Shown piece by piece: positions 1-15,090 of a stretch of 64,000 bases of DNA. The notes under the pieces are model-generated. The model made no database searches, was not told where the DNA came from, and was given only the letters and a program-made list of their open reading frames with translations. The stretch covers positions 30,196,001 to 30,260,000 of the forward strand of contig CM097885.1 of assembly GCA_044892525.1 (NCBI GenBank), in the 5' to 3' direction. A program made the position numbers and the translations under genes. Numbering within the stretch: the stretch's first letter is position 1; every line of letters begins with the position of its first letter. The stretch is from Schmidtea polychroa. Its lineage: Eukaryota.

Positions 1-1480
1 AACAACCAGATACCTACAACTAGTTACTAACAACTAGTTACATGATACTAAGTAAATACAACCACCTAACAAGTACTAACAACCAAAAACAAGCAACCAA
101 CCAGGTACCAGTTACCAACTACTAAGTACCTACAACCAACTAGTTACCTGATACCAAGTACTTACAACTAAATACTAACAACCAGTTACCTGATACCTAG
201 TACTTAAAACTAGTTACTAACAACCAAAAACAAGCAACCAACTAGCTACCAAGTACTAACAATCAAAAACAACTAGCTAACAACTAGATACCAAGTACCT
301 ACAACCACCTACCTATTAACTAGCTACCAAGTACTAACAACTAACAACAACCAGGTACTAGATACCAAGTACTAACAACCTACAACAACTAGGTACTAAG
401 CATTATCAACCAAGTACCTAAAACCACCTAACAAGTACATACAACCAACATCAACCAGGTACCTACAACTAGATACTAACAAACAGTTACGAAGTACCTA
501 CAACCACCTACCCATTAACTAACTACAACCAGCTAACAACTAACAACCAGATACCTACTACTTACAACCAACTACTAAGTACTAACAACCACCTAACAAG
601 TACATACAACCAACATCAACCAAGTACCTAAAACCACCTAACAAGTACATACAACCAACATCAACCAGGTACCTACAACTAGATACTAACAAACAGTTAC
701 GAAGTACCTACAACCATCTACCCATTAACCACCTAACAAGTACCTACAACCAACTACTAAGTACTAACAACCAAAAACAACCAACTAGGTACTAGATACC
801 AAGTACTTACAACAAACATCAACCAAGTACTTACTACCAACTACCAAGTACTTACAACTAGTTACTAACAACTAGTTACCTGCTACCAAGTACTTACAAT
901 TAGTTACTAACAACCAGTTACCTGATACCAAGTACCTACAACCAACTACTAAGCATTAATTACCTACAACTAGTTACTAACAACTAGATACCAAGTACTT
1001 ACAACCAACATCAACCAGGTACCAGTTACCAACTACTAAGTACCTACAACCAACTAGTTACCTGATACCAAGTACTTACAACCAACATCAACCAGGTACT
1101 AAGCATCATCAACTAACTACTAAGTACCTACAACCTACAACTAGATACTAAAAACCAGTTACCTGCTACCAAGTACTTACAACTAGTTACTAACAACCAA
1201 CCAACTAGGTACTAGATACCAAGTACTAACAACCAACAACAACCAGGTACTAAGCATTATCAACCAACTACTAAGTACCTACAACCAACTAACAACCACC
1301 TACCAAGTACTAACAACCAGTTACCAACTACTAAGCATTAATTACATACAACTAGTTACTAACAACTAGATACCAAGTACATATAACCAACAACTAAGCA
1401 TTATCAACCAAGTACTAACAACCAAGTAACTTACCTAGTACTAAGCACTGTCAACTAGATACCAAACACTTACAACCAGA
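1..1480 (+). repeat. Complex A/C-rich satellite built from shuffled short words (mirrored at ~11914-13393)
   Basis: Recurrent aacaacc, aagtact, tagttact, aggtacc and agatacc units with strong strand skew and no ORFs. Confidence 0.85.
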
Positions 1481-1751
1481 TGACCACATGAAATTATTGG
1501 TTAAATATGAAAATAAGGATTATATTTAGTTGTTTAGTAAATTATGGTGTAAAATTAAGAAATAAAGAATAATTAGGTAAATTAAGGATAAGTAAATTAA
1601 AGTTAAAAATTTTAAATTAAAGAAAACAATGGTTCAAAATTTAAATTAAAGCTAAAGTAAGATTTTTAAATTTATTATCAAAAGATTGAATAACCACCAA
1701 CTTTTTTGAGAAATGTAATTTATAATGAAAATTTAAATGGAAATTTAAATG

Positions 1752-1793
<42 letters not shown>

Positions 1794-4059
1794 TACTAAT
1801 AATTCAACAGTTACCAACAATCGGTTACTGATTATTTTTTAACTAGGTGCTAACAAATACTTACACCATGATACCACGTACTAACTAACTCTCAAACAAC
1901 CAGATACTTACAACTAACTACTAAATATTCTTTATTGTATTTTATGAAATGCTTTTTAAATTAATTTTTTATCTATCTTCAAAAATATATTTAATTACAA
2001 TCATTAGAAAAACCTTTTCAAATTTAACAAAAATGTTGATTTTCATCAAAAAAACCACAACTCATCACCACGTGGAATTCAAAATAATTTTAATTACAAT
2101 GAAAGACTAATGAAATCTAATTTACAAAACATTCTTCTTTTAAATGATAACTTATTATTGCAATGTAAAAATCGCATTCAATAAAAACTTATTGTTGATC
2201 AGTTTTATTATATATACTCTGAGTTTATCCGACAGGATGTTTTGACCCCCTAAGGGTACAGGTCGTAAGGGTACTGGTCGTAAGGGTATTAGTCGTAAGG
2301 GTACTAGTCGTAGGGGTATTGGTAACACTCAACCCCCATCTACCCATTAACCACCTAACAAGTACCAACAACCAAGTCTCAAACAACTAAATACTAAACA
2401 CTAACAACCAACAACAACCAGACACTAAGCATTATCAACCTACAACTATATAACAACAATCAGTAAACAACACTGTACCAACTACCAAATACAAGAAACC
2501 AACAACTTAGTACCAACAATCAACTAACAACACATAAAAATAATAGCAATTAAATAAAAAAAATTATTCTTCATCGCATACACTATTTTCTTATCAAAAT
2601 CTAAAAAGTCAACCAACTACTTACAACCAACAACTATGTACTAACAAATTGATCTTTAAAAGCAAATACTCATCACTTGAAAAAATTAGATGAAAAATTA
2701 ATTGAACTCAAGGCACTTTTAAGATATTTGAACTCAAGGCATCAATAACTTGGTAAAAATTGATTAAATTATTGTAAAAATTTAAATTATTCAAAATATA
2801 CTAAATTAAAAAAAATATAATTAATGGACAAGAAAGAACTTTAAATTCTAGTCATTGATCATTCAAGTTAATATGAATCAACTAAGATAATAAATTAATA
2901 AGAATTTTGAAATAAGATCTAGTAGATAATTGATTTAGATTGAATAAATTAATTGAAATAAAATTAATTTTAATTATTTTTTTTTAAAAGTAATACATGT
3001 ACTCAAATTGATTGACTGATTTCTCAATATATTCAAAAAATCTGTATGAATTCATTACAATTATCAAAGTCAGCAATCTACAATAAAAATAATTATCATT
3101 AAATTTCAAAAGAGACTAGAAAACTAATGATAAAATCTATCAAACCAGTAAATTCATTTAAATGACAATAATTGGTATATCCAAGTGAATTCTCTAATAA
3201 AATCATCTAAAAAGCATCAAATTTCCCTGAAATATCTATATCTTTTAAGATTAGTATCTTATCGATAAGTACTTGTTAAAGATCATATATTCACCTCAAA
3301 CTAACAAGATTCCTTAAAATCCCTTAAATGGCTATATTTCAACCCTTAATTCGTATTATTACAAATATCATCTAAAAAGCATCAAATTTCATTGAAATAA
3401 CTCTATCCTTAAAGATTGATATTTTAATGACAAGTACCCTTAAAAGGTTATATATTTACCTCAGACTAATAAGATTGCTTAAAATCCCTTAAATGACTAT
3501 AATTCTAACTTTAATTCGTATTATCACGAATATTTCCCTATAAAACATGTAAAATCATTAACCCTAAATAATTTATAAAATCTAATGATAAAACTGGTTA
3601 TAATTAATTTTTTGTTAATCACTGTACTCGATATTTTAAATAAATATTACTACAATATAACTGACTAGGTCCCATTGAAAGATTAAATTTATCCATTCAA
3701 TAAAATATATTTCTTCAAATGATCATTTTTACCAATATTCAACCGATTTAATTACTAATTAAAATCAAGATTCCTTCCAATAAAGATCAATTTTATTTAG
3801 TCGATGTTTTAAGTCCATATTTCTAAACTTTTGTCATTCTCCGCCTAAATAAAGATAAAAATAAATTAAAGTTGATATCAATCCCATTTATCTGTAAAGT
3901 TTTCATCGTCAAAACCAAGTAAATCGACATTGTTCTAAAACATAAATCTAAATTCATATACAATGAATTAATCACAACCTAATAAAACAATATAATTATT
4001 ATTGATACATAACTGACTAATTGACATTTCCCTTAAAACATTGATATTTTACCAACAGC

Positions 4060-4500
4060 ATACTTTAAAAATCGTATATTCCCATCTTAACCCATCTCTC
4101 ATTAAATTCAATCGACTATATCCCCCTTACAATGATATATTCCCAACTTATCTGATCTCTCATTAAAATCAATCGACTATATCTCCCTTACAATGATATA
4201 TTTCCATCTTATCTGATCTCTCATTAAATCTAACCGACTATATCCCCTTAAAAAATCATATATTCCCACCTTATCTGATCTCTCATTAAATCTAACCGAC
4301 TATATCCCTTTAAAAATCATATATTCCCATCTTAACCCATCCCTCATTAAATCTCACCGACAATATCCCATCTTATCCGATCTCTCAGCAAATATTTCTA
4401 CCCCCCTCATTAAATTTAACCGACAATATCCCATCTTATCCGATCTCTCAGCAAATAATTCTACCCTTTTAAACATCTATCCGATTATATCCCTTATTTT
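4060..4500 (+). repeat. ~59-bp tandem repeat (mirrored at ~8894-9334)
   Basis: Repeated cccatcttatctgatctctcattaaatctaaccgactatatcccctta-like units. Confidence 0.8.
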
Positions 4501-13699: not shown

Positions 13700-14490
13700 C
13701 ACCTTCTATTATTTTGTAATTAAATTTTAAAATCTTACTTTAATTTACTTATTTAAAATTTTTTACCATTGATTACTTAATTTAAAAATTAGTACTTTAA
13801 TTTACTTATTTAAAATTTTTTACCATTGATTACTTAATTTAAAAATTTGGACCATTATTTACTGTAATTTAATTTTTAAGAACTTAAATTTACTTTAATT
13901 TAAAAATTTGGACCATTATTTACTTTAATTGAAAAATCTGGACCATAATTTACTGTAATTTAATATTTTAGAACCATAATTTACTTTAATTTAATTTTTA
14001 GAACCATTATTTACTGTAATTTAATTTTTAGACCCATAATTTACTGTATTTGAAAAATTTGAACCATTGTTTTTTTTAATTTAAAATGTTTGACCATAAT
14101 TTACTGTAATTTAATTTTTTAGGACCATAATTTACTGTAATTTAAAAATTTGAGCCATAATTTACTATAATTTAATTTTTAGGACCTTAATTTACTTTAA
14201 TTTAATTTTTTAGAACCATAATTTACTGTAATTGAAAAATTTGGACCAATACTTACTGTAATTTAATTTTTAAGAACCATTATTTACTTTAATTTAATTT
14301 TTTTAGACCCATAATTTACTTTAATTAAAAAATTTGAGTCATAATTTACTTTAATTGAAAATTTTTTACCATTATTTACTGTAATTAAATTTTTTAGAAC
14401 CATTATTTACTTTAATTGAAAAATTTTGACCATTATTTACTTTAATTGAAAAATTTGGACCGTAATTTACTGTAATTGAAAAATTTACCA
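13700..14490 (+). repeat. AT-rich ~30-bp tandem repeat array
   Basis: Repeated ccataatttactgtaatttaattttta-like units; the reverse-complement array is at ~52290-52900. Confidence 0.8.
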
Positions 14491-14499
14491 CGTTTTTTA

Positions 14500-14960
14500 G
14501 TGTAGACCACCTATTTCTCAGGACCAAGGAGACTCACCTCACTATAGCGTGATAAATCCTTGGCTTTTTTATTGATAGTAGGATTTTTGTATAGAAAAAA
14601 ATTTTTCGTATTGAAAATCCCAGGACCATCGAGACCCCCTCACTATAGTGTGAATAATCCTTGGCTTTTTTAGTGGTAGTCGGATTTTTGTATTGAAAAA
14701 AATTTTTTGTATTGAAAATCCCAGGACCATCGAGACCCCCTCACTATAGTGTGAATAATCCTTGACTTTTTTATTGATAGTCGGATTTTTGTATTGAAAA
14801 AAATTTTTTGTATTGAAAATCCCAGGACCATCGAGACCCCCTCACTATAGTCTGAAAATTCCTTGGCTTTTTTAGTGGTAGTCGGATTTTTGTATAGAAA
14901 AAATTTTTTGTATTGAAAATCCCAGGACCATCGAGACCCCTTCACTATAGCGTGATAAAA
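14500..14960 (+). repeat. ~101-bp tandem repeat, about 5 copies
   Basis: cccaggaccatcgagacccc at 14619, 14720, 14821 and 14921; diverged inverted copies at ~51840-52260. Confidence 0.9.
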
Positions 14961-14999
14961 AAAAATTTGGACCAAAAATCCCTGAAAGCAAAAAAATGA

Positions 15000-15090
15000 G
15001 TTGGGAACAATTGCGTAATAAAAATTTGGGAACAAACCCCCCCCCCCCGGGGGGGGGGTAATTGTTCCCGTAGGCCACTATCTACCTACT
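15000..15090 (-). mobile_element. Polinton-type terminus (5'-AGTAGGTAG) with a C-run/G-run hairpin, closing the non-coding repeat block
   Basis: ctacctact ends at 15090. The same AGTAGGTAG starts the related copy at 51747 and the decayed Polinton at 57253. C12G10 hairpin is flanked by gggaacaa/ttgttccc. Confidence 0.65.

Follow-up and report, generated by a model that had tools for sequence, protein, structure and literature searches.

The first 15,090 nucleotides of a 64,000-nucleotide stretch of the Schmidtea polychroa genome (assembly GCA_044892525.1, contig CM097885.1, positions 30,196,001 to 30,260,000 of the forward strand; this whole stretch is referred to as the window, and all positions are counted from its first letter) are occupied by a gene-less foldback element. 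We consider this element to be probably a non-autonomous, snap-back satellite of Polinton DNA transposons, the arms of which are re-copied from each other. The observations behind this reading are the mirror symmetry of two long arms, the absence of genes, a high copy number, a sharp right end, an end motif with an adjoining hairpin, a diverged relic of the same arm and the presence of Polintons in the same window. From these we infer the left end, a 6-bp target-site duplication (TSD), mobilisation in trans and a fold-back copying step.

The foldback element is a near-perfect mirror without genes

Self-alignment of the window returned a single long inverted pair, 1–6215 against 13393–7179, which is ungapped and 99.94% identical. 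Comparison of 1–6171 with the reverse complement of 7223–13393 gave 0 mismatches and 0 indels across 6171 bases, in agreement with an initial annotation of this DNA that had described the two segments as inverted with no net indel. The identity extends to an (AAT)n run and to all six of the six homopolymer runs of 7–10 bases. The mirror reaches further inward, to 6215/7179, and contains four mismatches (6172, 6178, 6182 and 6189) in this last part. If arm differences were distributed uniformly, the chance that all four fall in the innermost 44 bp would be 2.5e-9. The 44-bp imperfect stem includes 10 non-repeat bases and leaves a true spacer of 963 bp (6216–7178), the units of which are 66–75% alike (alignment scores of 162–228, against 90–99 for shuffled sequence).

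TRF detected tandem arrays over 52% of the right arm; for the spacer the figure was 0%. The earlier description of the arms as built of nested satellites thus applies to about half of the sequence. The remaining features that had been ascribed to the right arm, namely the 30-bp and 101-bp arrays, the C/G hairpin and an end at 15090, were all found as described (Table 1). If the mirror continues beyond the window, the predicted element would measure 16,787 bp, with 7912-bp arms that make 94% of it a palindrome. The arithmetic behind this total and behind a left end 1697 bases before base 1 is correct, and the left end itself remains a prediction.

The claim that the arms have no coding content was borne out. 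The longest ATG-started frame in 6216–15090 encodes 53 amino acids, whereas 200 block shuffles gave a median of 72. Among stop-free frames, the two of greatest length (135 and 122 amino acids, both inside tandem arrays) had no match in Pfam. When the 15 open reading frames (ORFs) of the neighbouring Polinton described below were searched with tblastn at an E-value of 0.1, remnants of 0 of the 15 were found in arm or spacer, and by the same search neither a retroviral-like integrase nor virion genes were detected there. A protein-primed family B polymerase is represented in 6216–15090 by no ORF and no tblastn remnant. The foldback likewise contains no translated remnant from 49 related Polinton-type loci in metagenome contigs, and neither Rfam families nor tRNAs (ARAGORN) were found across the window.

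The element belongs to a high-copy family with a discrete right end

Part of the interval 6216–15300 is contained in 14 public short-read runs, four of which, from four samples and two studies, were analysed as contigs against 6100–17250; one of the four may be the source of the assembly. The four do not include any of the metagenome and sediment runs with a small share of the interval. The contig records placed on this interval numbered 310,757, 46,995, 30,281 and 45,506 per run. In all four runs the median summed depth of the arm was 33–64 times that of the flank bin 15400–15771, and the depth of the central spacer bin was 1.7–5 times that of the same bin, the flank itself being repeated. 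A rough conversion of depth, in which low-copy depth was taken from four hand-picked flank sites and contig overlap was allowed for, gives ~100–1500 elements; this is an order of size only, summed depth not being copy number. The contigs also contain many deletion joints (15 of 2017 listed), and a form of the spacer that skips 294 bases is present in three of the four runs. Arm and spacer belong to a dispersed, high-copy family with a discrete right end.

The right end is marked by a drop in depth, by a fold and by a motif. Summed depth falls ~12-fold or more over the 15028–15090 bin in all four runs, and the terminal C/G hairpin in the same interval folds with a z-score of −3.83 (0 of 200 shuffles were equally good). 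One contig of 186 bases (record 5 of run X1) matches 15091–15241 and then continues with 35 letters unlike the element. It has the structure expected of an empty site in another copy of the flank, and the right end was therefore placed between 15090 and 15091, a boundary supported by this one contig. The terminal 9-mer AGTAGGTAG occurs three times in the window (at 15090 on the minus strand, at 51747 and at 57253), compared with 0.17 expected occurrences and with 0 of 100 shuffles that reach three. Among DNA transposons, 5'-AG ends are characteristic of Polintons. The AGTAGG of the foldback end agrees in five of six letters with (AGT)2, the terminal motif given for vertebrate Mavericks (PMC8097293). 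The exact terminus, searched as a 21-mer, gave 0 matches in viral contigs and metagenome contigs, and a 22-mer of the 101-bp unit gave 0 matches in viral contigs and prokaryote genome contigs.

The read data bear on whether the locus could be a one-off chromosomal palindrome, created by head-to-head one-arm repeats or by breakage and fold-back in situ, with no mobile two-armed unit. Such an origin would agree with the one-arm relic at 51747 (see below) and with the spacer being much rarer than the arms in the reads. However, the spacer is multi-copy in all four runs and has a length variant, and two independent insertions would not match at the family-rare sites described in the next section. 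We therefore hold a one-off palindrome to be extremely unlikely.

Both arms carry the same family-rare letters

Ten variant sites lie in the mirrored right arm, among the 40 of 303 variant rows listed, and at all 10 this copy has the minority letter. These letters make up at most 0.6–45% of depth in run X11; in run X1 none of the 10 exceeds 1%. Each of the 10 is mirrored in the left arm. Because family-rare letters are common to both arms, the arms were made alike after this lineage diverged from the family majority. The same letters indicate that the assembly is not simply a consensus of the family average. At 6189, one of the four sites where the arms differ, the left-type letter is present in all four runs and accounts there for as much as 29, 11, 12 and 0.09% of the depth. 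The restriction of the differences to the innermost 44 bp gives a polarity that fits copying or repair in a folded strand, ending before the loop is reached. Taken together, differences confined near the loop and shared rare letters fit the copying of arm from arm in a folded strand.

The element and its link to Polintons may instead be real, with the arms equalised after insertion by host gene conversion, or in the computer by assembler merging, and not by replication of the element itself. Assembler merging gives zero differences, microsatellite and homopolymers included, and differences that survive just beside the unique spacer would be expected where reads anchor. The TIRs (terminal inverted repeats) of the neighbouring Polinton, moreover, are not identical (96% over 166 bp), so that Polinton replication does not always equalise ends. 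On the other hand, the zone of retained differences measures 44 bp, far below read length, and the assembled arms show minority letters rather than the family average. On balance, equalisation by conversion or merging seems improbable to us.

In fold-back chimeras a perfect arm adjoins an imperfect seed and a spacer in single copy. The present locus resembles this form and might thus be an artefact of library preparation or assembly that was primed at the 44-bp imperfect repeat, the true locus being one-armed; the junctions are unbridged among the contigs listed, and the left end falls outside the window. Against an artefact, 10 bases of the 44-bp seed are non-repeat, the seed represents an old inverted duplication, and both halves of the spacer, together with the left-type letter at 6189, occur in runs of two studies. 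A weaker point in the same direction is that 0 loose ends were seen at 6216 among 24 of 10,076 listed. An artefact is, in our judgement, very unlikely.

Polintons in the window and their resemblance to the foldback

An intact-looking Polinton with all core genes and a 6-bp TSD lies ~2 kb from the foldback. Its polymerase, of family B, matches a PHROG DNA polymerase (E = 1.3e-18), with no match to Pfam DNA_pol_B_2 and no match by sequence to a solved structure. The integrase has a chromo domain and an rve match of E = 2e-5, which is below the curated cut-off; the A32-type ATPase (Pox_A32, E = 1.3e-5) and the adenovirus-type protease (Peptidase_C5, E = 4.8e-6) were recognised by the profiles of these names. 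The capsid model (pLDDT 90) is a double jelly-roll that matches the capsids of iridovirus and PBCV-1 (E = 3.5e-17). With polymerase, integrase, ATPase, protease, capsid, TIRs and a 6-bp TSD, 17168–35991 is a genuine Polinton.

Several further features of this Polinton were observed. A short TBP-like ORF (21322–21786, minus strand; Pfam TBP, E = 1.3e-14) is arranged head to head with the ATPase. At 23491–23625 the integrase ORF carries an in-frame (TAT)n insert of 135 bp with GT and AG at its borders, which resembles a microsatellite-filled intron. The hairpins at the two ends (17168–17240 and 35920–35991) have the forms C9G6 and C5G9, roughly mirror forms of each other, for which flip/flop inversion or homopolymer error is possible. 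Relatives of the capsid were absent from viral contigs and present at 49 loci in metagenome contigs. One of these loci (L049), which holds a distant capsid relative, has inverted repeats 8 kb apart (2646–3112 and 10977–11435) that are 82–91% alike and may mark the termini of a small Polinton-like element.

The foldback and the 18.8-kb Polinton have in common the first five bases, a C/G-run hairpin near the end and a module of 65–79 bp; the ends of the Polinton as a whole are AGTAGTAGG, not AGTAGGTAG. The folds at 17168, 35991 and 57253 are weak (z of −1.7 to −1.8). The module is present in two copies of opposite orientation in each arm and in one copy in the subterminal region of the Polinton. 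It contains a 16-bp palindrome and sits in a peak of depth in all four runs, and no stable fold was found for it (z of 0.2 and −0.3). It could act as a signal in cis or represent a small repeat of its own. Matches of the arm to other AT-rich regions, near 58–63%, were rejected as compositional.

The 51747 relic had been annotated as a diverged, collinear relative, and it proved to be one: 14 of 15 tiles of 200 bp align to the arm in one orientation, with scores of 81–193 compared with 24–37 for shuffled sequence. The relic has two large deletions relative to the arm and is followed by reverse transcriptase and RNase H fragments. Its subterminal hairpin is pronounced (z of −6.9). A continuation of the arm in 56066–57252 was considered and rejected, as 0 of 8 tiles scored above shuffle.

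Long, internally repetitive TIRs mark foldback-type elements and are longest in non-autonomous copies (PMC3573991, PMC4079207), and the sequence tie between the foldback and the Polintons is short. The element could thus belong to a cut-and-paste superfamily, as Galileo, Tetris and Tm1 do, and resemble Polinton ends by chance in a Polinton-rich genome. However, the TIRs of Galileo are no longer than 1.26 kb and its TSDs measure 7 bp (PMC3573991), compared with an arm of at least 6.2 kb here, and the AG-type end, the C/G-run hairpin and the 65–79-bp module are all in common with Polintons of the window. We regard a cut-and-paste origin as very unlikely indeed.

Table 1. Features of the foldback element, its relic and the Polintons of the window.
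Feature	Position	Strand	Basis and remarks
Left arm, visible part	1..6215	+	0 mismatches to right arm over 1-6171, 4 over 6172-6215; extends off window
Innermost imperfect stem, 44 bp, pairs with 7179-7222	6172..6215	+	Carries all 4 arm differences; within 26-bp x3 repeat
Central spacer (loop), 963 bp, 15% G+C	6216..7178	.	Three diverged ~290-bp units
Right arm, 7912 bp, without coding content, tandem arrays in about half	7179..15090	-	Units of 19, 61/63, 165, 15, 14-45, 13, 30 and 101 bp
Module of 65-79 bp, common to arm and Polinton 18228-18306	7777..7855	+	94% over 65 bp, E = 2e-23; mirror copy 5539-5617
Second, inverted module copy in arm	11115..11183	-	83% over 69 bp, E = 1e-6; mirror copy 2211-2279
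Subterminal 30-bp and 101-bp arrays, in common with 51747 relic	13741..14960	-	30-bp array 13741-14486; 101-bp array 14519-14960
Right terminus (5'-AGTAGGTAG); short stem at the end, followed by C/G-run hairpin	15028..15090	-	Fold and depth drop
Predicted TSD CCACAA, one copy visible	15091..15096	+	Sequence only
Intact-looking Polinton, 18,824 bp, ends AGTAGTAGG, 6-bp TSD CATTAT	17168..35991	+	TIR, TSD and core genes; candidate enzyme source, probably not the cognate helper
Diverged, internally deleted one-arm relic of same arm superfamily	51747..53850	+	Collinear tiles; ended by Ty3/Gypsy-like fragment
Decayed second Polinton, apparent end with AGTAGGTAG, runs off window	57253..64000	+	tblastn: polymerase split into 8 pieces; also homologues of ORF 20064-20486 and protease

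Surrounding sequence

The right flank of the foldback holds an intronless NDUFA7-like copy (15270–15647, minus strand; Pfam, E = 2.9e-17) whose frame changes near 15453; at that point most of the read depth lacks one base. This flank is multi-copy throughout, and the gene is apparently carried within a repeat. Direct repeats of 141 bp, 98% alike (16695–16835 and 39131–39271), surround the 18.8-kb Polinton together with retroelement-like ORF fragments; judging from these repeats, the Polinton appears to be inserted in another mobile element. A fragment of a piggyBac-type DDE transposase (Pfam DDE_Tnp_1_7) lies at 37206–37862. The 51747 relic and its Ty3/Gypsy-like fragment are flanked by an inverted pair of protein kinase sequences, 94% alike, one whole and one partial (50542–51056 and 55544–56066).

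Discussion

The initial annotation had called the element a giant non-autonomous Polinton derivative. A gene-less, high-copy foldback with a Polinton-type right end does stand beside a genuine Polinton. The word derivative is too strong, because end motifs and one module of 65–79 bp, and no gene remnant or homology between TIR arrays, connect it to the two Polintons of the window.

Several results weigh against a Polinton satellite with re-copied arms. No homology of TIR arrays and no gene remnant was found that would tie the arms to either Polinton in the window. The terminus had been equated with that of the 57253 element: the two have the 9-mer AGTAGGTAG in common, but no similarity was detectable beyond it (local score of 37, compared with 48.8 for shuffled sequence), and 57253 is taken to be an element end on account of the genes that follow it. 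The AGTAGG of the foldback differs from (AGT)2 in one letter, and the left end, along with the second copy of the TSD, falls outside the window. Arms, module and C/G-run hairpin were found in none of the 49 metagenome Polinton-type loci, most of which are short and without ends; these loci gave just one weak match to the AT-rich spacer and one 17-bp match to the module. Spacer depth is only 0.04–0.15 of arm depth, compared with the 0.5 expected if all members had this centre; either most family members differ in their centre or have a shorter one, or AT-rich DNA is sampled poorly. Among the contig pieces listed (32 of 206,752), none bridges a junction of arm and spacer by 31 bases on each side, the nearest of them being record 17 of run X12, which passes 7179 by 25. 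Finally, the perfect identity of the arms, rare letters included, could come from assembler merging of both arms or from host gene conversion.

The snap-back Polinton satellite nevertheless remains the explanation that we think probable, and a mechanism can be proposed for it. A Polinton integrase would recognise the AG-type ends and insert the foldback with a 6-bp duplication, and a protein-primed Polinton polymerase would initiate at its ends. A single strand of the foldback would pair with itself along almost its entire length, leaving a 963-base loop; one arm could then template the other while the 44-bp imperfect stem would stay uncorrected. For Polinton-like elements, a published model, itself a proposal, has a single-stranded intermediate in which a panhandle arises from the TIRs (PMC4046053). 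Because its ends differ from those of the foldback, the 18.8-kb neighbour is probably not the cognate helper; a Polinton family with AGTAGGTAG ends, of the 57253 type, is the more likely one. The 57253 element itself has its end motif in common with the foldback, but its polymerase is fragmented.

A more far-reaching proposal, which we hold to be doubtful, is that elements of this kind form a satellite class of Polinton viruses, that is, capsid-sized, gene-less snap-back genomes of their own lineage that the polymerase of a helper would rebuild arm from arm in each cycle, and that would be packaged in the helper's capsids and inserted by the helper's integrase. If this were true, packaged satellites would spread to hundreds of copies and may damp their helper as defective interfering genomes do. 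The closeness in size to the 18.8-kb element, to which attention had been drawn earlier, carries little weight as evidence for packaging, because the centre of the family is under-represented in the reads and deletion joints are many.

A family that is ~94% palindromic would record Polinton replication, so far a model rather than a result. The patterns of arm-to-arm and copy-to-copy differences can separate fold-back copying from host gene conversion on the basis of genomes alone. If the Polinton link holds, large gene-less Polinton parasites are missed by homology-based annotation and shattered by short-read assembly (30,000–310,000 pieces per run). Kilobase perfect palindromes are usually thought to be unstable; if the link holds, a single genome can retain hundreds of copies of them.

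Comparison with known systems

The literature searched yielded no account of giant palindromic elements that lack genes and end like Polintons; Repbase entries and supplements, which may describe such elements, lay outside the search. The non-autonomous Polintons of Kapitonov and Jurka in 2006 were reportedly ordinary deletion forms. The foldback resembles these and Tlr1 in what would be a dependence on enzymes acting in trans, and differs from them in having no gene remnant and in being almost all palindrome. Tlr1 is gene-bearing and is now regarded as a Polinton-like virus (PMC5499653). In an anole survey, an apparent absence of non-autonomous copies is noted for that genome (PMC3014272).

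With Polintons and Mavericks the foldback shares an AG-type end, a predicted length within 13–25 kb, array-bearing TIRs, the same neighbourhood and, by prediction, a 6-bp TSD (PMC8097293; bioRxiv 10.1101/2023.08.22.554363; PMC6431247). It differs from them in the absence of polymerase, integrase and capsid genes and in its end, which is AGTAGG and not (AGT)2. Its arms, at least 6.2 kb long and predicted to reach 7.9 kb or 94% of the element, are outside the published TIR ranges: 46–1447 bp for vertebrate Mavericks (PMC8097293), generally 100–1500 bp for Polintons (bioRxiv 10.1101/2023.08.22.554363), 744 bp for a C. elegans Polinton (bioRxiv 10.1101/2024.01.15.575659) and ~2 kb, with genes inside, for butterfly Polintons (bioRxiv 10.1101/2025.02.07.637071). 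By a gene-based definition the foldback is not a Polinton, and it is its behaviour that would be that of a non-autonomous Polinton.

In overall form the foldback resembles the two-TIR copies of Galileo (PMC3573991), Tetris (PMC4079207) and Tm1 (PMC3169594), which are likewise gene-less, have long TIRs made of tandem arrays and a variable centre, and act as a source of satellites. Long, internally repetitive TIRs without a transposase, the hallmark of foldback-type elements, are found in the present element as well. It differs from the three in being ~8 times larger, in its Polinton-type ends and in the zero divergence of its arms.

A further parallel is offered by the snapback defective genomes of adeno-associated virus, which are self-complementary with a loop, keep their cis-acting ends and replicate with helper proteins, as the foldback presumably does (PMC8235507). 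Those genomes, as described in the same source, are transient pieces of the viral genome, whereas the foldback is a chromosomal family with a sequence of its own that is not recognisably cut from a helper.

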